The translations under genes were made by a program, and so were the position numbers. A stretch of DNA of 48,119 nucleotides, from IMG/VR virus record IMGVR_UViG_643348551_000006, positions 1 through 48,119 of that record; one strand, written 5' to 3'. Source of the stretch: a virus. Its lineage: Duplodnaviria > Heunggongvirae > Uroviricota > Caudoviricetes. Positions 4,439-32,341 of the stretch are shown here, piece after piece (position 1 is the first letter of the stretch; the number at the start of each line of letters is the position of its first letter). The notes beneath the pieces are model-generated. The model made no database searches and was not told the origin of the DNA. It was given only the letters and a program-made list of their open reading frames with translations.

Positions 4439-7267
4439 TTATCCGATATCGCTTCGGGAAGTTGATAACAACTTTAATTCTGACTCAAGTTCATCAACTC
4501 TTTTTGTCAGTTTCTGAATATGGTGAATAAGCGGAACAACCAGACGATCATACATCACACCTTCAGCAACCATCCCATTATCAGACGCTATACCTGGATC
4601 ATCTTTGTCTGTAAGAGGACGCCAGTGAACATATTGCGGTGCTATCTCTCCGACTTCTTCTGCAATAAGGCCATAATGTCCCCAGTCCTTTCTGTCCCTT
4701 TCACAAGTCGAGCGATACCATACAGGACGAAGTTTCAACAGCTCATCCGCGTACTTGTCCTCTAAAGACTCGATATCCGTCTTGTATCGACGGGATGAAG
4801 TCGAACGAAAAACCATGTTGTAGCCAGCAATCGGACTTACGAACATGTTAGGACTATCGGTTGTTGTCTGAATGTCGAATATTTGCAAACAATAACAAGT
4901 TAACGTCTGGAAGTTTGCATCTAACGAGCCAGCTTCAAGTCTTGACGATGTGAGAAAATTCCTGTTTAAATTGTTAATCTCCGATATGCTGTAAGTTCCT
5001 ATCTCAAGTGGTGTCGGCAGGTTTTTAGTGTTGTACTGCCTGCGCCAGCCTGGCGAATAACCATCCCCATTGTAAACGTAAATAAATTCGGCGTTTACTT
5101 TTGCACCGGAAACGCTGGTAGTCGTTGCGGTGGTGATCCTGATTGTGTAGTTAGTCATGCCAAAGCTGGTTATTTCAATCAGTGCGCCAGCAAGCGGAAT
5201 AGTGCCGCATTTTGTTTCGCTATCCGGTATTGAGGCGTTATTAGCATAAGCCCACGAACAGCGAGCAATCCATGTACGCTGATTGAATGCGCCGTTATTT
5301 TGCAGCAGTGTAATAAATGACGATGTGGATAACGATTGTCCTGAATCGCCAGTATTCAGCCATGCCTGAGACGAAGCAGCAGCGCCGATGTTACCAGGCG
5401 TTAGAGTTATATCTTTCGTGCCGTCAAAAGCCACATTGTTAATGCTTCTCGCTGTCTGCAATTTGGTGGCGGTTGCCGCGTTCCCCTTCAGTGCCCCGGT
5501 GATCCCGCCAGTAACAGACAACGGACCTGAAATAGTCCCTCCAGTTGTTGGCAGTGCTCCAATATCTGATGGTGTAGGTTTCTGATGTGAGCTAAACATC
5601 GTATAAACAACACCATCGGTAACGCCGGAAGGCTTACTCGCTGAATATGCTGGCGAGGTATAAACAGAAACTGACGCATTTGCAGTGCAATCCCAATGGA
5701 TATTTACACTCGTCGCATAATTGCCAATCTCAACGTAAATATCATATGTATCGCCGGATGTGTTGATCCAGGCGAAATTTGTTAATCCTGCGCCTGTTCT
5801 TTTCCACAAAGCTCCAGTAATCCCTTTGGGATTTCCATTGCCTGCTCGCAAAACCAGTTCTGAAATGCCTGCCTGCTGTGGGGAGCCGACGTTGTAACCA
5901 GCGCCACCAATCAATGTGATGTAAACGATGGAACTCGCTTGTGGCATGGTAACCGTAGCCAGTTTGAACCACCCTGCCCCGCCAGAGAAAGACATCGTTA
6001 CTGAATTGAAAGTGCCAATATCTTTCGGCGTTAATGTTATATCCGCTGTCAGTGCTTTCCCGTTAACTTTTCGGTTAGATGGTACCCTGCCATTCGCATT
6101 GTCATTCGCTGCTTTAACTGCCTTCGGTGTCGCGGCAAGCGTTTCAGATGTACTGTTGGTTGCACTACTGAGCTGAACGATCCCCTTTTTCGTCGTGCTC
6201 GCATCCTCAAGCCCCACGGCGGATGCAATATCCTCCGCCCGTTTTGCTGCTGTCTCGGCGCGCGTTGCTGCAGATTCCGCCTTACTTTTGCTCTGAGCTG
6301 CCGCTGTCGCACTGCCAGCAGCCTCTGTCGCCTTCGTGGATGCCGTCGTGGCACTTCCCTTCGCTGCTGACGCCTGTTTAGTTGCCTCATCTTTTGAAGC
6401 AGACGCCGATGAGGCCGATGACGCCGCCGAACTGGCGGACGATGCGGCAGCCGTTTTTGAGGATTCTGCGCTGGTTTCCGACGCTTTCGCGTTCGTTTCG
6501 GATGTCTTCGCTGCGGAAGCTGACCTCGCTGCTGCGCTGGCCTGTTCAGTGGCTTCGCCAGCCTTCGTTGTGGCTGTTGAAGCGGACGAGGCAGCGCTTT
6601 CTGCCGATTTTCCGGCGGCGGTGGCACTGGCTGAGGCCTGCCCGGCACTTGTTGACGCGGCACCGGCACTGGTGGCAGCCGCGCTTTTTGAAGACTCTGC
6701 AGCGGCAGCACTTTTTGATGCTTCAGTGGCCTTTGTTGATGCCGTTCCTGCGCTGGAAGATGCTGACTGAGCAGATGATGCAGCCTGTCCGGCTGACGTG
6801 CTGGCGGCACGTGCTGAGCCTGCAGCATCGGTTGCATGAGTTGCCGCCTCGCTGGCTGATGCACTGGCATCACTGGCTGACTTCTTCGCGGCTGCCGTGT
6901 TCTGTGCCACTGCGGACGCGTTACGCGCCACCTCTTCCACCATCAGTTCAAAACGGCGCAGTGCCTCCGGACGGGCATCATCCTCCGTCATGGCACCGAG
7001 AAAATCATTCAGCGTACCGGGTCGGGAATCTTCATGCACGGTGATGGTCCCGGCATGTGACGGCGGGAATCCCACCACCAACAGAATAACGCTGTACTGA
7101 CCGTACTCAACGTCCATGCTGTAACGCCCGGCTTCATCCGGATTTTCTGAGGCCACTGTGTTCACCACCACCGTGGTGCTGTTACGTTTTGCTTTCAGCT
7201 GGATTGTGCAGTTCTGTATCGGTTTACCTGCACCGTCTTTCAGTACACCTGAAATCTTTACTGCCAT
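4439..7267 (-). CDS. Second side tail fibre protein with Ala/Ser-rich repetitive shaft and C-terminal self-cleaving intramolecular chaperone (peptidase S74-like) domain; start at MAVKISGVLKDG
   Basis: N-terminal Stf-type anchor (MAVKISGVLKDGAG...GTLNDFLGAMTEDD); long low-complexity A/S/T region; C-terminus ...RRYKTDIESLEDKYADELLKLRPVWYR...GLIAEEV...VVPLIHHIQKL typical of endosialidase-type chaperone domains. Confidence 0.85.
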   Translation of the reverse strand: MAVKISGVLKDGAGKPIQNCTIQLKAKRNSTTVVVNTVASENPDEAGRYSMDVEYGQYSVILLVVGFPPSHAGTITVHEDSRPGTLNDFLGAMTEDDARPEALRRFELMVEEVARNASAVAQNTAAAKKSASDASASASEAATHATDAAGSARAASTSAGQAASSAQSASSSAGTASTKATEASKSAAAAESSKSAAATSAGAASTSAGQASASATAAGKSAESAASSASTATTKAGEATEQASAAARSASAAKTSETNAKASETSAESSKTAAASSASSAASSASSASASKDEATKQASAAKGSATTASTKATEAAGSATAAAQSKSKAESAATRAETAAKRAEDIASAVGLEDASTTKKGIVQLSSATNSTSETLAATPKAVKAANDNANGRVPSNRKVNGKALTADITLTPKDIGTFNSVTMSFSGGAGWFKLATVTMPQASSIVYITLIGGAGYNVGSPQQAGISELVLRAGNGNPKGITGALWKRTGAGLTNFAWINTSGDTYDIYVEIGNYATSVNIHWDCTANASVSVYTSPAYSASKPSGVTDGVVYTMFSSHQKPTPSDIGALPTTGGTISGPLSVTGGITGALKGNAATATKLQTARSINNVAFDGTKDITLTPGNIGAAASSQAWLNTGDSGQSLSTSSFITLLQNNGAFNQRTWIARCSWAYANNASIPDSETKCGTIPLAGALIEITSFGMTNYTIRITTATTTSVSGAKVNAEFIYVYNGDGYSPGWRRQYNTKNLPTPLEIGTYSISEINNLNRNFLTSSRLEAGSLDANFQTLTCYCLQIFDIQTTTDSPNMFVSPIAGYNMVFRSTSSRRYKTDIESLEDKYADELLKLRPVWYRSTCERDRKDWGHYGLIAEEVGEIAPQYVHWRPLTDKDDPGIASDNGMVAEGVMYDRLVVPLIHHIQKLTKRVDELESELKLLSTSRSDIG

Positions 7268-19835: not shown

Positions 19836-20864
19836 TTATTTCACCTGTACCACCACAAACTCATCAGGATCCGGCAGTACCATCAACGGCGCGGACTGCG
19901 TCATAGTGAATTCACGGGCAGGGTCACCCACCGTCATCCAGTGTTTCGGATAACGGGAAGAGGACACCACACCTTCAGACAATGCCTGCGCATCCTGAAT
20001 TGCGCCGTAGCAACGAATCCCATCTGCAGCAGTATTCCCCAGGACCAGCGTGCCGTCTGGCAGATAACGTTTTTCGGTACCATCCTCTGCCACATAAGAC
20101 GTTTTTGCCACCACAATGGCCAGATCGCCGTAATACCCTTTGAAGGACACCACTGCGCCCAGATCTTTCACTGCCGTTTCGAGTTGTGAATTTGAACCGC
20201 GACGGGTATCCAGTTTTTCGCGGAACAGCTTAAAGCCATTCAACAGACGCCAGGCCTTGCCATCCATAATGGCAATATTCACCAGGCCACTGGCCTGATC
20301 GCAGTACATGTCAATATCATGTGTCGGGTCAAACGTATCGCGGTTCTGATTTGACCACTCACTCCCACCTGCCTGTGTAATATTGTTTTTCGTTGATCTG
20401 CCGAAATCGACCTCAATTTTCTCGAACTGCTCCCCTTCCATGGTGTACTTGCCATACAGCACGGCATTCACCGCCTGCATCTCTTCCACCTGGACAATGG
20501 CGTGTTCTTCCTGTTTGAGATTATCGGTGATGATACGCAGACGACGGTAAGCCGGATCGTTCAGTTGAGCTGGATCTTCACCGGGAAGACGCTCCACCGC
20601 CTGCTGGTAATTAAATTCGTGTTTCGGCTTGACGTAACCCGGACGCAGTACGCGGGTTTCACCGCCACGGTGACGCAGAACCCTGCCCTCAACAACAGGA
20701 GAAACATAGGCTGCCACCGGCGTTTTGCCGGTAATTTTATCCAGCATCACTTCTTCTGTATGGAAATTGATCGTGCGACGAAAAAAAAGCTCCAGAAACA
20801 GAGCACGAAATTTCACTTTTTGCTCGGTATAACCAAGCAACTGGCGGGTTGTAAACAATCCCAT
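19836..20864 (-). CDS. E: Major capsid protein E
   Basis: 342 aa; ...LFLELFFRR...PGYVKPKHE...NITQAGGSEWS...TGDPAREFTMTQSAPLMVLPDPDEFVVVQVK, lambda gpE homologue. Confidence 0.95.
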   Translation of the reverse strand: MGLFTTRQLLGYTEQKVKFRALFLELFFRRTINFHTEEVMLDKITGKTPVAAYVSPVVEGRVLRHRGGETRVLRPGYVKPKHEFNYQQAVERLPGEDPAQLNDPAYRRLRIITDNLKQEEHAIVQVEEMQAVNAVLYGKYTMEGEQFEKIEVDFGRSTKNNITQAGGSEWSNQNRDTFDPTHDIDMYCDQASGLVNIAIMDGKAWRLLNGFKLFREKLDTRRGSNSQLETAVKDLGAVVSFKGYYGDLAIVVAKTSYVAEDGTEKRYLPDGTLVLGNTAADGIRCYGAIQDAQALSEGVVSSSRYPKHWMTVGDPAREFTMTQSAPLMVLPDPDEFVVVQVK

Positions 20865-27205: not shown

Positions 27206-27614
27206 GCCTCCCCACCGGAAGGACCCACACAAATGAGAGCGTTTATCATTAACATTTGCAGATAAGATGACGTACATCATTGAAACGCCATTCAGCCATA
27301 TACCGGCAGCATTCGTAGTTGCACTCCGTAACTCTGCGACTAAGGTTAAAAACATGGCCCTCTTTTGCCACCGGCAAATCTTCAATGGATTTCCCCTGCC
27401 GGTTTTTTATTTTCGTCGATGCATAACATTGCATTTACATCAATAGCGGCTATTGTCATTAGTATGTTGCATCAATGCATGGGTGGTATTGGCGGTCTTC
27501 GCCGGCCGCTTCTGTGTAGCTGCTCCCTGTGACCGGTTTTTTATTTCTCACATTACAGCAACCCCTTAGAGTGAAGGGCTGCTGTAATGCCTGTTACTCA
27601 GTAACTACCGCACC

Positions 27615-27923
27615 TTACGGTAATTTCATGAAGGCAAATACCGGACAGCCCGGATGACGAGCATCTTCTGTTGCTTCCAGCATTGACTCACCAAACCACT
27701 CCGTCGTGGCGCGACCGTCAGCTGCTTTGTAGTGGATCAAGTACTGGTTTTCGCCATCCGCATACTGCGCACGGGCTTTAACCTCACCCCATTCATCACT
27801 GATGCGCATCTCCACCAGTTGAGACAACTCAAACTTAAACGGAGCAGCATCAGCACCAATTACAATCGGTTTGTTTTCTGTTTTTCCATCATCGTCTCCT
27901 GATATCGAAGCCCGTCGCCGCAC
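27615..27923 (-). CDS. Hypothetical soluble protein (102 aa) between the lysis cassette and cos
   Basis: ORF-track ORF in the late-operon orientation; no motif recognised by eye; start uncertain. Confidence 0.4.
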   Translation of the reverse strand: MRRRASISGDDDGKTENKPIVIGADAAPFKFELSQLVEMRISDEWGEVKARAQYADGENQYLIHYKAADGRATTEWFGESMLEATEDARHPGCPVFAFMKLP

Positions 27924-28063
27924 CGGGCACTGATCAACATTTGAGTATTCGCGGCGACAGAAAGAATTTATTTTATTGAATAGCCACTAACACAGAATTT
28001 CATGCTTTCCGGACGCTGGCGCGCCCTTCATTTTTCAGCAAAATATTCCGCTATTACAGATGA

Positions 28064-28246
28064 TCAGTTCTGCAGACACTGCCGAACGCCATCGATAAGC
28101 TGGCAGACCTGAGAAGCCGTATCGAAAAGCTGGCGCGCCTTATCCAGGCTGACGCATCCCACCAATAAAAAAGGCACCAGTATCGCTACCAGTGCCCATT
28201 TCGCCGCCGTTCGCGGCATTCTGTGTGTCCAGTGTTTTCTGCTCAT
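28064..28246 (-). CDS. Small lipoprotein (lipobox LLVGC) overlapping the endolysin 3' end; possible o-spanin-like or lysis accessory protein
   Basis: MSRKHWTHRMPRTAAKWALVAILVPFLLVGC followed by a ~30-aa mature part with 2 Cys; position matches Rz/Rz1 but no i-spanin partner is evident. Confidence 0.45.
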   Translation of the reverse strand: MSRKHWTHRMPRTAAKWALVAILVPFLLVGCVSLDKARQLFDTASQVCQLIDGVRQCLQN

Positions 28247-28260
28247 AACACACCTGGTTA

Positions 28261-28647
28261 TCAGCGTTTCAACTGAAAGTGAGGCCCGTCTTTCAGTGTT
28301 TTCCAGTCCCCACCCCATTCGATGGCAGTTCCCAGCTCTGCGGCAGCCTGCTTAAATGCCTGCGCGATTTTCTCGTACAGAGGCCAGTCCCATGACACCT
28401 GGCTGCCAATGTAGGCCACAACATCCACCGCATCACCTGTAAGGTGGCGGCTGTTCATGGTCTGGCTTTTCCCTGCCGCTACCAGCTGTTTCTGGCGATA
28501 CTTACTGCGCAGACCTTCCGTGATACCAAAATCAACCTCCGTCAGCTCCAGCGCACGGCGAACGACAGCAACCAGCTGTGGTTTGACGCCCTCCAGATTT
28601 TTTTCACTGCGACGGCTGAATCTGAATTTACCCGGCATCATATTCAC
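28261..28647 (-). CDS. Endolysin, peptidase M15-type (L-alanyl-D-glutamate / D-Ala-D-Ala peptidase fold)
   Basis: 128 aa with zinc-ligand motifs SRHLTGDAVD ... DGPHFQL characteristic of M15 peptidases; lies downstream of holin-like genes. Confidence 0.85.
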   Translation of the reverse strand: MNMMPGKFRFSRRSEKNLEGVKPQLVAVVRRALELTEVDFGITEGLRSKYRQKQLVAAGKSQTMNSRHLTGDAVDVVAYIGSQVSWDWPLYEKIAQAFKQAAAELGTAIEWGGDWKTLKDGPHFQLKR

Positions 28648-28919
28648 CTCAACAATGGAAAGATTTTTGTGACGTTCCCGCGTGCGCGTATCACCAGCAC
28701 GCAGAACAGCAGGTTAAAAAACACTTCCAGCCAGCCCGTTGCTAACGGGCGACCACACAGATAGCTGAGGGGCGCAAAGGCATACAGCAGCATCAGCAGC
28801 CAGGCCAGCCATGACATCAGCGGTTTGTGTCTGGAGTCACGACGACGATAAAAAAAGAGCGTCAGCACGATAACCGTGCATAACGCCACATTCAGTAATC
28901 CGGGAAGGTTACTTAACAT
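28644..28919 (-). CDS. Small membrane protein (91 aa, 2-3 TM) between holin and endolysin; possible second holin or antiholin
   Basis: Strongly hydrophobic segments (LLNVALCTVIVLTLFF, WLAWLLMLLYAFAPL, FFNLLFCVLVI); start overlaps the preceding gene's stop. Confidence 0.45.
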   Translation of the reverse strand: MLSNLPGLLNVALCTVIVLTLFFYRRRDSRHKPLMSWLAWLLMLLYAFAPLSYLCGRPLATGWLEVFFNLLFCVLVIRARGNVTKIFPLLR

Positions 28920-29301
28920 TGCCGCCTCCTCCGCCCCGCAGGCGCGAGAACAGGCCGGACACCAGTGATGCGATATCCTGCTGGTGGATGAACGACAGAA
29001 TCTTCACCGACACCACCGCCACCAGCACCGCACACAGTGCATCCGCAGATGTACCGTCATAACCTGTTTTTGATGCAATCCAGGCTGACAGTACACGCGC
29101 CCCCAGTACACCAACAATGAACGACACCAGAAAATGTGCCGCCACACGCCAGGCTGAAATCTTCTGCGGCATCGTTGCCACAAACAACGCCCCGGCGAAC
29201 GCACCAAACACAATCCCGAAATCCGTTCCGGTAAACAGCCCGAATACCGTCGCCCCGCCGAGCGCCGCAGCCGTGCCGGAACCGGATAAGGGTTCAGACA
29301 T
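28909..29301 (-). CDS. Holin-like membrane protein; start at MSEPLSGSG
   Basis: About 130 aa with 3-4 TM segments (GGATVFGLFTGTDFGIVFGAFAGALFVA...) and charged Gly-rich C-terminus; AGGAG RBS 8 nt upstream; first gene of the lysis cassette. Confidence 0.6.
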   Translation of the reverse strand: MSEPLSGSGTAAALGGATVFGLFTGTDFGIVFGAFAGALFVATMPQKISAWRVAAHFLVSFIVGVLGARVLSAWIASKTGYDGTSADALCAVLVAVVSVKILSFIHQQDIASLVSGLFSRLRGGGGGNVK

Positions 29302-29316
29302 ACTTTTTCTCCTGTA

Positions 29317-29341
29317 AATAAAAAAGGGCCACCAACGGCCC
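29317..29341 (-). terminator. Rho-independent terminator immediately upstream of the holin RBS
   Basis: Minus strand GGGCCGTTGGTGGCCC then TTTTTTATTT, then AGGAG and the holin ATG. Confidence 0.5.
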
Positions 29342-29388
29342 ATAAAAACACCCCATCAAAGGCACCCGCAGATGCCTTTTGTGTGGTG

Positions 29389-29541
29389 TTATTCAGATTT
29401 ACGCAGTAAAGGCCGGAGCACGACCAGCGCCATCGCCACCAGCACACCATCTGCCAGCACCGACATCAGCCGTCCGGTGAAATCCACCACCACTACCAGA
29501 AACAGCAGGATGGCAGCCAGCACAAGGCGCGCACTTTTCAC
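29389..29541 (-). CDS. Small hydrophobic ORF (~50 aa, GTG start overlapping the TerB-like stop as GTGA)
   Basis: Hand translation VKSARLVLAAILLFLVVVVDFTGRLMSVLADGVLVAMALVVLRPLLRKSE; below the ORF-track size cutoff; overlap suggests translational coupling. Confidence 0.25.
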   Translation of the reverse strand: MKSARLVLAAILLFLVVVVDFTGRLMSVLADGVLVAMALVVLRPLLRKSE

Positions 29542-29963
29542 AGGTACTGCTCCAGCGGCAACTGCAACGCCTGTGCAATTTTCTTGAGCTGCACTTCTTC
29601 ATCAGGACCGATGCCGTCCTGGTCAGCAATATCCAGACACAGACACAGCACGTTAACTGCATCATCAGTACCGGCAACATCAGCCAGCTGACGAAGGGCT
29701 TCGGCATTGGCAGAACGCGGTGACGCTTCATAACGGGCGCGGATATTTGCACTCATTTGTGCAATCTCACCCGAGAACGGCGCAAAGGCAGGAAGTGCTG
29801 CAATGGTTTTCTCCAGCACAGCGATTTCTTTCGCATCACAGGTGCCGTCGGCGAATGCTATGGAATACGCACCCCAGACGGTCGCCTCCACTGCATCGCG
29901 GTTCTCCATCTTCTTCACTTCGGTAATGGCCTTGCGGGTTTTCTTTTTGAAAATACCAAACAT
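29538..29963 (-). CDS. TerB-like (tellurite-resistance TerB family) protein
   Basis: 141 aa; ...AYSIAFADGTCDAKEIAVLEKTIAALP...NVLCLCLDIADQDGIGPDEEVQLKKIAQALQLP resembles TerB-domain proteins. Assignment by eye, moderate. Confidence 0.6.
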   Translation of the reverse strand: MFGIFKKKTRKAITEVKKMENRDAVEATVWGAYSIAFADGTCDAKEIAVLEKTIAALPAFAPFSGEIAQMSANIRARYEASPRSANAEALRQLADVAGTDDAVNVLCLCLDIADQDGIGPDEEVQLKKIAQALQLPLEQYL

Positions 29964-30339: not shown

Positions 30340-30365
30340 AAAACCGCCCGGTGGAGGCGGTAAAG
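30340..30365 (-). terminator. Rho-independent terminator (minus strand) downstream of the tRNA-like element
   Basis: Minus strand CCGCCTCCACCGGGCGG followed by TTTTTTTT. Confidence 0.5.
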
Positions 30366-30628
30366 GATGTATTTCCAGGTTTTGCTTAATATATGAATAA
30401 TCTCAATGTCATGGTGTTATTTACAACACCAGAATGATGCATCACCGACCCTGCCAGGAAATATAAAATCTCCGCCGAAAATGCACCATTCTGCTGCCGT
30501 AAAAAAATCAGCACTGCGGCTACACCCGACCCCAAATCATAGCCAGAGAACAGAATGTTTTTAACAATCTACCCCCACGTAATAAAAAAATACGTCAGTG
30601 CCGTCACTATAAGGCGTATTTCAAATGT

Positions 30629-30835: not shown

Positions 30836-30900
30836 AAAACCCGCTCAGTGGCGGGATCTTTTGATAAAAACGACAAAGGCACCATTAAGGTGCCTTTTAC
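30836..30900 (-). terminator. Tandem terminator hairpins (minus strand)
   Basis: GGCACC-TTAAT-GGTGCC then TTTGTCGTTTTT, then CCCGCCACTGAGCGGG then TTTTTTT. The second hairpin is a near-identical copy of the terminator at 31553..31585. Confidence 0.5.
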
Positions 30901-31050: not shown

Positions 31051-31452
31051 TTATCGATACAGATAAGCCATCCCTATCCCGTGCAATACCGCCCGTTTAA
31101 TATTCTCAAACTCATCTTCCGCAATCATAGGAACAATATAATTTCGTCCCTCCCAGGTTCTGGTTTTTATGCGATCCAGTCGGCTCAATGAAACCGTCAT
31201 CAACATGTCACATTTTACCCAGCAAGTAATATGCTCATTACCAGGTATGGGGTTTTCTGATAACTCATGATGGCAATCTCTGCGAGGGAGCGGTTCAGTA
31301 GTGCTTATTGGTACCACTGTTACCAATTGATTGTTGTGCCTGTTTCTGGACACGACCACCACTGGCCTGATCTTGACTATTTCCGGAACAACCATTCCCC
31401 GAAAATCACACATTAAAACAGAACGAACAGACGGCTGATACTTTAATACCAT
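31051..31452 (-). CDS. MazF/PemK-family endoribonuclease-like protein (toxin homologue) with no adjacent antitoxin gene; start at MVLKYQPS
   Basis: MVLKYQPSVRSVLMCDFRG...KIRPVVVVS...LVTVVPISTT...CWVKCDMLMTVSLSRLD aligns with MazF (MVSRYVPDMGDLIWVDFDP...HRPAVVLS...) and Kid/PemK (TRPVLIVT...LPVVVPVTSG...VVRCDQPRTID). The track ORF extends 26 codons further upstream. Confidence 0.7.
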   Translation of the reverse strand: MVLKYQPSVRSVLMCDFRGMVVPEIVKIRPVVVVSRNRHNNQLVTVVPISTTEPLPRRDCHHELSENPIPGNEHITCWVKCDMLMTVSLSRLDRIKTRTWEGRNYIVPMIAEDEFENIKRAVLHGIGMAYLYR

Positions 31453-31552
31453 AAATCTCTTTGCCTGATAATGACGACTTGTGAACTCCACTACAAACAA
31501 AATGATTCTGCTGAACAGGCAGTTTCGCACTATACATTATAACCTGTTAAGC

Positions 31553-31585
31553 CAACAAAAAAACCCGCTCGGCGGCGGGATTTGC
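31553..31585 (-). terminator. tR'-like rho-independent terminator about 65 nt downstream of the putative Q stop
   Basis: Minus strand CCCGCCGCCGAGCGGG followed by TTTTTTTG. Confidence 0.5.
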
Positions 31586-31632
31586 TTACTTTGCCATCGA
31601 GTACAAAATCGGCAAAATATCAGATTTGCACG

Positions 31633-31661
31633 AAATATATGCCTTTTAATCTACTTTTGCA
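31633..31661 (-). promoter_or_regulatory. PR'-like late promoter candidate overlapping the 3' end of the putative Q gene (TTGCAA - 17 nt - TATATT)
   Basis: Good sigma70 hexamers with 17-nt spacer; with the terminator it would give a ~70-nt leader RNA, analogous to lambda PR'-6S-tR'. Confidence 0.4.
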
Positions 31662-32341
31662 ACACTTTGCTTTGAAAATGCCGTCTTTTGTTCTGAACGT
31701 GTTCTCATCACAAACAATAAAGCCTCACTATCCAGCCGGTGGAAAATGTGTTTCATTGCAACCCAGTGACCAGTAAATGTTTTGGACCAGTTTTTAGTTG
31801 TCACTCCCGCCAGTAATGCCAGTTCCTGATATTCATAAGTTTCACGCCCAGCTAGCTCACTCTTCACATCCTGTGCCGCCAGCCAGATTAATTTTTTCAG
31901 GCGCTCCCGTGTTTTCTCCGCAATTTTTCTGGTACCAGATTGCGCGTTAAATTCATTCCACGCCCACTGTGTTATCGCAATCTGGTGTTCCCAGCAAATG
32001 CTGCCGCTGTAACACCACAGCAACCAGGCTTTATGGTGTTCTTCAAGAGACAGAACCGCCCGTCGCCATGATGATGTCGAAAACTCAACCTGACTTACCA
32101 GAGGAATTGACGTCTTCTTTGCCAGCGATTGTTTCCCCGGGATTGGTGGATTATCCAGCGTGATCATTTTTCCGGTCACTTCATCGCGGTACCGGATTTT
32201 TTTACGCCTGTAACGCCCGGTATCAAACATGGCATTCTCCTGCCAGGCTTCAAGCTGACCTTTTGTTGCTCCACTCAAATCGGCGGTGGCGATAATGAGC
32301 TGTTCACGCACAAACTGTAAATACTGGTTATTCATGCGCAC
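31646..32341 (-). CDS. Putative late-gene antiterminator Q (assigned by position between rusA and the PR'/tR'-like elements)
   Basis: 231 aa; no motif recognised by eye. Call rests on the conserved lambdoid order rusA - Q - PR' - lysis. Confidence 0.45.
   Translation of the reverse strand: MRMNNQYLQFVREQLIIATADLSGATKGQLEAWQENAMFDTGRYRRKKIRYRDEVTGKMITLDNPPIPGKQSLAKKTSIPLVSQVEFSTSSWRRAVLSLEEHHKAWLLWCYSGSICWEHQIAITQWAWNEFNAQSGTRKIAEKTRERLKKLIWLAAQDVKSELAGRETYEYQELALLAGVTTKNWSKTFTGHWVAMKHIFHRLDSEALLFVMRTRSEQKTAFSKQSVAKVD

Follow-up and report, generated by a model that had tools for sequence, protein, structure and literature searches.

How does a phage break through the outer membrane of its host if it encodes no recognizable inner-membrane spanin subunit (i-spanin)? 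No spanin can be identified in about 13–15% of the phages that infect Gram-negative hosts (PMC6139136; bioRxiv 10.1101/515445), and the disruptin is the only alternative means of crossing the outer membrane that has been shown. The question is raised again by a 48,119-nt stretch of viral DNA (IMG/VR record IMGVR_UViG_643348551_000006, positions 1 to 48,119; hereafter, the window), whose source is a phiP27-like lambdoid prophage of Escherichia coli. Four tightly packed genes run along its minus strand from 29301 down to 28064, in the order Phage_holin_8, Phage_holin_3_7, M15_4 zinc-peptidase endolysin, and a 60-amino-acid (aa) prolipoprotein. This region (28064–29301) is best explained as the complete lysis cassette of the prophage, co-transcribed with its late genes. 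An initial annotation of the window had placed a holin, a second membrane protein, an M15 endolysin, and a lipoprotein here, and all four open reading frames (ORFs) were found at the coordinates below. The last gene stands where an outer-membrane spanin subunit (o-spanin) would be expected, without an i-spanin anywhere in the window, and its product may be an unrecognized viral way of breaking the outer membrane. The parts of the cassette are as follows.

28909..29301, minus strand: holin-family protein 1 (Phage_holin_8), 130 aa; PF16931, E = 8.9e-24; phrog_198 (holin), E = 4e-42
28644..28919, minus strand: holin-family protein 2 (Phage_holin_3_7), 91 aa; PF05449, E = 6e-22; phrog_217 (holin), E = 1.5e-38
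28261..28638 (longer ORF to 28647), minus strand: endolysin, zinc peptidase M15_4, 125 aa; PF13539, E = 1.6e-12; phrog_465 (endolysin), E = 3.2e-75
28247..28260, minus strand: 14-nt spacer TAACCAGGTGTGTT, containing an AGG(TG) element that resembles a Shine-Dalgarno sequence
28064..28246, minus strand: prolipoprotein gene, 60 codons plus stop; phrog_7528, E = 9.5e-37; supported by selection on its reading frame and by an invariant lipobox and Cys
28157-28246, minus strand: predicted signal peptide, codons 1-30
28154-28156, minus strand: Cys31, the predicted lipidation site
28067-28153, minus strand: predicted mature helix, codons 32-60
28172..28197, minus strand: hairpin and T-run resembling an intrinsic terminator, within the signal-peptide coding part of the lipoprotein gene

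The lipoprotein gene had been described as overlapping the 3' end of the endolysin gene, and this turned out to be incorrect. The 84-aa ORF that overlaps the endolysin gene is merely the longest possible one. Because Met1 of the 60-aa form is invariant across homologs while the later Met10 varies (M, T, V, or I), we place the start of the gene at 28246, which is 14 nt past the endolysin stop; the Prokaryotic Genome Annotation Pipeline (PGAP) also calls the 60-aa form. The family phrog_7528 (60 residues, “unknown function”) matches the lipoprotein end to end. The precursor consists of MSRKHWTHRMPRTAAKWALVAILVPFLLVG followed by CVSLDKARQLFDTASQVCQLIDGVRQCLQN, with the lipobox LLVG/C (the slash marks the cleavage site); divided by region, it reads MSRKHWTHRMPRTAAKW-ALVAILVPFLLVG/C-VSLDKARQLFDTASQVCQLIDGVRQCLQN. 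It passes a rule-based reading of the lipoprotein signal against PROSITE PS51257: there is a Lys or Arg within the first seven residues, the h-region is uncharged, and the lipobox L-V-G-C has its Cys at position 31. At position +2, just after this Cys, the window has Val, and the homologs have V, A, T, S, G, or E but never Asp, which by the established Lol-sorting rule predicts targeting to the outer membrane. With a lipobox and no Asp at +2, the precursor appears to carry the kind of signal that an o-spanin has, and we infer that it is processed and sorted in this way. The mature part has 30 residues if Cys31 is counted (29 after it) and contains two further cysteines, C48 and C57. In alignments drawing on 158 clusters at 90% identity and 21 representatives at 50% identity, the lipobox, C31, C48, and C57 are all invariant. 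The initial description of an LLVGC lipobox and a mature part of about 30 aa with two cysteines is upheld.

Selection on the gene was measured as the ratio of nonsynonymous to synonymous changes (pN/pS), with substitutions counted on a minimum spanning tree that connects 56 unique coding sequences. In the lipoprotein frame, pN/pS was 0.20 for the whole gene (0.23 for the n-region, 0.17 for the h-region and lipobox, and 0.16 for the mature part), versus 1.2 and 2.0 in the other two frames. This implies a genuine lipoprotein gene, maintained by purifying selection, with nothing encoded in the overlapping frames. AlphaFold2 predicts a single helix from residue 12 to residue 59 with moderate confidence (mean pLDDT, the predicted local distance difference test score, of 71). 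The only hydrophobic segment of the protein is the signal peptide (residues 18–34). The mature part has a net charge of 0, no proline, and a hydrophobic moment of 0.55 over 18 residues, and its helix can be set in a heptad register with L34, A37, F41, A44, C48, I51, R55, and L58 at the a and d positions. The hairpin at 28172–28197 has 11 bp followed by TTTTTATT (-16.1 kcal/mol; z = -4.2 relative to shuffled sequences). It is kept in nearly all of the 56 unique homologous coding sequences, with changes mostly in the loop, and it disappears in homologs that do not conserve the peptide ALVAILVPF, which makes selection on the RNA inseparable from selection on the protein. No promoter of its own was predicted for the lipoprotein gene. 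Searches with the protein found no match in Pfam (E up to 1) or NCBIfam, no match to the PADLOC defense models, and nothing meaningful by sequence in the PDB.

Is there an i-spanin that was overlooked? The initial annotation saw none, and neither did we. An all-frame search for an embedded or overlapping i-spanin, by three-frame translation of the gene strand across 27600–28660, yielded no ORF with a transmembrane domain (TMD) except the lipoprotein itself. In addition, tblastn with lambda-like, SfII/DUF2570-like, and P88 DUF2570 Rz proteins as queries found no Rz homolog in the 48-kb window, and a scan of all ORFs in the window for a single N-terminal TMD with a charged tail gave no credible candidate. 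The type II inner-membrane candidates that did turn up elsewhere in the window were just the signal peptide of a Lom/Ail-like outer-membrane protein, a tail-region protein, and random ORFs. An Rz gene embedded in or overlapping the lipoprotein gene is ruled out by the pN/pS of the off-frames (1.2 and 2.0). We also found no i-spanin in the related loci from Yersinia, Mu-like, and Lelliottia prophages or in other loci, such as L177 and L015 (related loci are referred to by our L numbers). The cassette thus lacks the cognate i-spanin of a two-component spanin.

One relative has been reported to have a complete spanin. Kongari et al. 2018 (PMC6139136) list phiP27 as having a “separated” two-component spanin, with both subunits in singleton families and with fewer periplasmic residues (32 + 30) than any other pair that they surveyed. 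Their o-spanin (20706..20861; 30 periplasmic residues, 25 of them predicted to be helical) is a 90%-identical ortholog of the lipoprotein in the window. Their i-spanin (20348..20542) corresponds to a 64-aa ORF with a TTG start (L001 3313..3507) that is antisense to another ORF, of 90 aa, which is also found in L044 at 46% identity. Among the sampled loci, the i-spanin ORF is present only in phiP27 and phiP27-identical loci (L001, L074, and L093), and the window wholly lacks the segment that contains it, as do nearly all of the relatives sampled. We rejected this i-spanin because of its TTG start, its position antisense to a conserved ORF, and its confinement to phiP27-identical loci; it is very probably spurious, to judge from these comparisons, and the family would be better described as a lone lipoprotein. 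The same survey mentions 31 genomes that have a lipoprotein gene without a linked i-spanin (PMC6139136). There are other problems in the databases besides the apparently spurious i-spanin: a 51-aa out-of-frame ORF is annotated over the lipoprotein gene in phiP27 (L32; L001:3070-3225, minus strand) and in E. coli E400634 (WP_001138287.1; L005:2163-2318, minus strand), and the lipoprotein itself is unannotated in both records, although the lipoprotein frame is the coding one (pN/pS of 0.20 versus >1). A paper on the holin of Stx2e phages (PMC12571312) makes no mention of the lipoprotein gene.

The lipoprotein family comprises 158 clusters at 90% identity, from Escherichia, Salmonella, Citrobacter, Cronobacter, Yersinia, and Lelliottia. 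When 1.84 billion representatives were searched with a profile, only 21 proteins came up, the clear relatives among which are short lipoproteins (44–71 aa). Two subfamilies can be seen in the family, with cysteine spacings of C-x8-C or C-x9-C. The gene is present in 313 of 5426 complete E. coli genomes (~6%), at 489 places, and the holin3_7 gene is present in 347 complete E. coli genomes, at 586 places. The cassette, which had been called atypical, is atypical in having a lone lipoprotein without Rz, but given how many genomes carry the gene, this is only relative.

The gene is tightly linked to lysis genes. Among 80 IMG/VR loci that we retrieved with the lipoprotein, essentially all that include enough upstream sequence have holin8, holin3_7, and endolysin genes just 5' of it. 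Conversely, when loci were retrieved with holin3_7 and had at least 2 kb of downstream sequence, the lipoprotein was present in 64 of 69. Overall, the lipoprotein gene lies after the endolysin gene in over 140 related loci and in several phage backbones, so it lies within the cassette and downstream of the endolysin gene, as an o-spanin gene does. Many of these loci are closely related E. coli prophages, so each locus cannot be counted as an independent event; the support that is independent comes from about six different backbones and combinations of partners. For example, the lipoprotein follows the endolysin in lambdoid, Mu-like, and Yersinia prophages, and the endolysin may be M15_4 or GH108+PG_binding_3. 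In the Yersinia prophages and in a Mu-like phage (with GemA, Mor, and a Mu portal), the lipoprotein gene overlaps the stop of the GH108 endolysin gene by 4 nt. In L085 and L090, the lipoprotein is 90% identical while the holin pair is only ~31% identical, and a lambda-S-family holin is found beside the lipoprotein in L177 (with an M15 endolysin) and in L015 (with a GH108 endolysin). The carriers include Stx2e, Stx2k, and LT-II-type toxin prophages, and their virion modules differ (lambdoid Nu1-terminase, HNH/Terminase_4, or Mu-like portal).

In about 45% of the relatives, there is a small protein with a single TMD (phrog_4493/1115, unknown function) between the endolysin and the lipoprotein. 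It is absent from the window. It takes the form MKGIE[VM]ETPASLDLTRAAAFAIRLVAVAVLIWAVRWW or is a 48–60-aa relative of this; examples are L024:5885-5998 (37 aa), L053, L072, and L012. At the one junction that we read (L024), the small TMD gene stops 1 nt before the ATG of the lipoprotein gene, and the endolysin stop is followed by a hairpin that resembles a terminator. In the sampled loci without the lipoprotein, the small TMD protein was never seen. Some GH108 cassettes carry an additional 44-aa TMD protein (phrog_4906).

What occupies this position when the lipoprotein does not? In a minority of otherwise near-identical cassettes, lambda-type Rz/Rz1 genes are found in the same slot. In L162, L181, and L182, the holin8, holin3_7, and M15 genes are followed by an Rz-type gene 15 nt on. 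The holins and the endolysin of L162 are 94–98% identical to those of the window, and past the M15 stop by 15 nt there starts an Rz gene (PF03245, E = 3e-35) with an embedded Rz1 (PF06085, E = 4e-20). RefSeq annotates a “lysis protein” at this slot in L181 and L182, and its annotation confirms the order holin, holin, M15 before it. The junction of M15 to Rz occurs in 17 complete E. coli genomes. In an alignment of the junctions, the Rz and lipoprotein genes share their first three codons (ATGAGCAGA), and the spacers that precede them are similar. By this alignment, the lipoprotein and Rz/Rz1 are alternative occupants of one expression slot. The only copy of the lipoprotein gene that we found beside an intact S-R-Rz cassette is in phage GER2 (L007:2950-3180), and it has no start codon and has two in-frame stops. 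We do not count it as a case of a lipoprotein and a spanin occurring together, since it is a pseudogene. It lies ~750 bp downstream of S-R-Rz in an Stx phage, and an apparent remnant of the small TMD gene is nearby.

The lipoprotein also resembles an o-spanin in part of its sequence. The N-terminus of the precursor through the lipobox (35 columns) is homologous to the precursors of LysC-type o-spanins, such as Rz1 of SfII (PF23793), with an hhalign probability of 96.7% (E = 4.6e-10) and 53% identity over 36 residues by BLASTP (E = 3e-9). The mature domain has no match to the Rz1 (PF06085), LysC (PF23793), or Lysis_col models (Pfam, E up to 1). We considered whether the mature helix derives from the C-terminal SLDLNVSLLSALAQC segment of LysC by deletion of the proline-rich linker; hhalign ranks this alignment first, but without significance (E = 0.37). 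From these alignments, the lipoprotein gene looks like a derivative of an o-spanin that lost its i-spanin and gained, or kept, only a short helical mature part. Given the linkage to lysis genes across phage types, the alternation with Rz/Rz1, and the LysC-type signal peptide, the initial placement of the lipoprotein in the spanin position is strengthened.

How, then, might the outer membrane be breached? The reading that we prefer, and to which we assign about an even chance, is that the lipoprotein is a stand-alone amphipathic helix anchored in the outer membrane, probably as a disulfide-linked oligomer, which would destabilize the outer membrane after the murein is removed, either directly or via OmpLA, and would need no phage i-spanin. 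The facts of the cassette agree with a fourth lysis gene whose product works on the outer membrane and has no inner-membrane partner encoded by the phage. As the cycle ends, the two holin-family membrane proteins would permeabilize the inner membrane; the cytoplasmic M15 zinc peptidase would then reach the murein and cut it; and the product of the fourth gene would provide the outer-membrane step. The 60-aa precursor would be exported by Sec and then lipidated and cleaved at LLVG/C, and, with Val rather than Asp at +2, the Lol system would deliver the lipoprotein to the outer membrane and insert it in the inner leaflet, where it would expose a 29-residue helix that is neutral, amphipathic, and heptad-patterned, with two invariant cysteines. 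During late expression, the lipoprotein would build up in the outer membrane, probably as disulfide-linked helical oligomers, and would do no harm as long as the wall is intact. After the endolysin has removed the murein, the lipid-anchored amphipathic helix could destabilize the outer membrane directly; alternatively, it could perturb the inner leaflet and so activate OmpLA, as with the lysis lipoproteins of colicin operons. We infer both the oligomerization and the outer-membrane-disrupting activity. We are more doubtful about, and put forward only tentatively, a stronger proposal: that a neutral amphipathic helix of 30 residues with a lipid anchor can breach the outer membrane unaided after loss of the murein and that it represents a distinct class of phage outer-membrane disruptor without an inner-membrane tether, next to the two-component spanins, the unimolecular spanins, and the cationic disruptin, which arose from a LysC-type o-spanin by loss of the partner (with the OmpLA route, or the precursor itself serving as the inner half, as possible variations).

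Several points weigh against the idea of a lipoprotein that acts without a phage partner. In work on lambda, an o-spanin alone (Rz1 without Rz) is reportedly inactive. The 29 residues cannot bridge the periplasm, and, as noted above, the Rz1, LysC, and Lysis_col models all fail to match the mature domain. The small TMD protein of the relatives hints at a possible membrane partner that has no counterpart in the window. The sharing of a slot with Rz/Rz1 could partly reflect mosaicism, because the module boundaries of lambdoid phages often fall right after the endolysin gene. Finally, about 5 of the 69 sister cassettes (L120, L128, and L175 among them) have neither the lipoprotein nor Rz/Rz1, which implies that an outer-membrane factor may be dispensable or that those prophages are defective.

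Could the lipoprotein instead be a true o-spanin that bridges the periplasm and fuses the membranes together with an inner-membrane partner that went unrecognized? Such a partner might be a host protein, a holin-family protein, the small TMD protein of the relatives, or the lipoprotein's own uncleaved precursor, which would have its N-terminus inside, one TMD, and the same 30-aa periplasmic helix to pair with the mature form in the outer membrane. The signal peptide is of the LysC type, the periplasmic cysteines are invariant as in Rz/Rz1 (spanins need disulfide-linked homodimers), and the heptad pattern would suit the pairing of helices. Most members of the family also have an unusually long, conserved, basic n-region (M.R.HWTHR.PR), although this motif is not kept in the distant members P0130, P0137, and P0138. 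As for the choice of partner, holin8/holin3_7 accompanied lipoproteins of subfamily 1 and lambda-S-type holins those of subfamily 2, and in the relatives the small TMD protein often adjoins the lipoprotein gene; however, lipoproteins that are 90% identical are found beside holins that are only 31% identical and with either type of endolysin, the holins all lack a periplasmic domain, and neither the window nor about half of the loci contain the small TMD protein. Holins as specific partners are unlikely for the further reason that they diverge to 31% identity or switch family while the lipoprotein stays 58–90% identical. Also, two 30-residue helices are too short for an intact periplasm. Taken together, we consider an unrecognized partner unlikely.

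Another view is that the phage is functionally spanin-less and that the lipoprotein is a decayed or minimal remnant of LysB/LysC, of minor or conditional benefit, on which lysis does not depend. The likeness to LysC is limited to the signal peptide, an out-of-frame stretch upstream resembles a degenerate C-terminus of LysB (Rz), by eye only, and the slot is empty in some cassettes. Lambda mutants in Rz/Rz1 lyse in the laboratory unless divalent cations stabilize the outer membrane. However, purifying selection on the mature domain (pN/pS = 0.16) is as strong as on the signal peptide, and the pattern of cysteines and helix is conserved across all six of the genera listed above (Escherichia, Salmonella, Citrobacter, Cronobacter, Yersinia, and Lelliottia). 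Furthermore, the gene keeps its position in unrelated backbones at distances that would suit translational coupling (-4 to +14 nt), and the single copy beside an intact Rz is the one that has decayed. A remnant of this kind seems quite improbable to us. It is very improbable, in our view, that the protein has no role in lysis as such and is a late outer-membrane lipoprotein that masks a receptor or excludes superinfecting phages (like Llp of T5 or Cor of phi80) or tunes the timing of lysis. In favor of such a role, Llp and Cor are small Cys-containing phage outer-membrane lipoproteins that block receptors, and we found no functional annotation of the lipoprotein in Pfam, NCBIfam, or phrog. But the gene travels with the lysis cassette, across different virion modules, rather than with tail or receptor-binding modules, and the protein matches no PADLOC defense model. 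Because the gene has no predicted promoter of its own and is so close to the endolysin gene (14 nt, or -4 nt), it would not be expected to be expressed in the lysogen.

The other three genes of the cassette belong to known families. Both holin-family proteins score well above the Pfam cut-offs (84.4 bits versus 26.4 for Phage_holin_8; 77.9 bits versus 25.4 for Phage_holin_3_7), and both are small proteins with multiple predicted TMDs (about four and three hydrophobic segments, respectively) that are encoded upstream of the endolysin. The 91-aa protein had been described as merely an extra membrane protein, and its membership in Phage_holin_3_7 changes that. The two holin genes overlap by 11 nt. 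The longest ORF of holin 1 spans 28909–29343, and since the Pfam match begins only at its residue 15, the gene probably starts at 29301 (130 aa); PGAP gives this same start in a 99.9%-identical prophage of E. coli EC21Z-048. The endolysin was correctly recognized at the outset as an M15-type zinc peptidase: it matches PF13539 with 48.2 bits (cut-off 25), and its motifs SRHLTGDAVD and DGPH correspond to SxHxxGxAxD and DxxH, so the zinc-binding signature is present. No signal sequence or signal-arrest-release sequence was found in it. In relatives, the M15 endolysin is exchanged for the GH108+PG_binding_3 endolysin.

Besides the EC21Z-048 prophage, relatives of the stretch at ~92% identity are phiP27 (an Stx2e phage), phiSTEC1575 (an Stx2k phage), and “Actinobacillus” phage pPE4. 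The holin genes are preceded by a TerB/TciA-like gene and a DUF3927 gene; on the other side, the lipoprotein gene is followed by a phrog_1935 gene and a Nu1-type small terminase gene. The upstream pair (29389–29963, minus strand) comprises a TerB-family gene like tciA of P1 (78% DNA identity) and a 50-aa, two-TMD DUF3927 gene directly 5' of the holins, with a terminator-like hairpin (29341..29326) after these genes and 5' of the start of holin 1. At this position, relatives have stx2e, LT-II, or pertussis-like toxin genes. Further upstream, 30340–30565 and 31051–32341 (minus strand) resemble a late-control region: there is a promoter-like site at 30564..30536 and there are strong terminator-like hairpins at 30361..30343 and 30897..30875, downstream of a gene for a Q antiterminator (31646–32341) and a gene for a PemK/MazF-family toxin (31051–31395). 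Relatives have Ile and Arg tRNAs in their late-control regions; a tRNA scan found no tRNA genes in the window. The phrog_1935 gene (27615–27923, minus strand) encodes a soluble protein of a family of 70–102 aa that lies 3' of the lipoprotein in about half of the related loci, and it is outside the conserved cassette. In L120, L128, and L175 (at about 4656–5700), an Ais-like histidine-phosphatase gene on the opposite strand lies directly after the endolysin gene and is followed by the small terminase gene.

This lipoprotein family is a clean and abundant example of phages without a recognizable spanin, in the best available genetic system, and natural, nearly “isogenic” cassettes with Rz/Rz1 exist for comparison. 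If the lipoprotein is active alone, then it would be a minimal peptide that breaches the outer membrane, which would bear on the release of toxin from the prophages of Shiga toxin-producing E. coli, on engineered lysis, and on the design of endolysin adjuvants.

How does this lipoprotein compare with known systems? Like the o-spanins (lambda Rz1, PF06085; P2/SfII-type LysC, PF23793), it is a predicted outer-membrane lipoprotein, is encoded by the last gene of the lysis cassette, and has conserved periplasmic cysteines; the N-terminus of its precursor is homologous to the LysC type, and its slot is identical to that of Rz/Rz1 in the sister cassettes. Unlike the o-spanins, it has no i-spanin embedded, overlapping, adjacent, or elsewhere in the window. 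Its mature domain, with 29 residues after the Cys, is predicted to be all-helical and has no proline, whereas Rz1 of lambda is proline-rich, and this domain lies outside PF06085 and PF23793, with homology only in the signal peptide. With the unimolecular spanin gp11 of T1, it shares being a single cassette gene with an N-terminal lipoprotein signal to the outer membrane, but gp11 has a C-terminal inner-membrane TMD and a periplasmic domain long enough to bridge, and the lipoprotein has neither. The disruptin gp28 of phiKT (bioRxiv 10.1101/515445) is likewise a single small protein of an E. coli phage in place of spanins and has an amphipathic helix, but gp28 is described as resembling a cationic antimicrobial peptide, whereas the lipoprotein has a signal peptide and its mature part has a charge of 0. 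The colicin lysis proteins, or bacteriocin release proteins (Lysis_col), differ from the lipoprotein in that they show no sequence similarity to it (no Pfam match, E up to 1), are borne on plasmids in colicin operons rather than in phage holin-endolysin cassettes, and have mature parts that are not Cys-containing helices. They are like it in being stand-alone lipoproteins with a mature part of ~30 residues and an LxGC lipobox, which in Kil of ColE1 is LLVGC as well. Colicin lysis proteins permeabilize the outer membrane alone, and their signal peptides can be functional.

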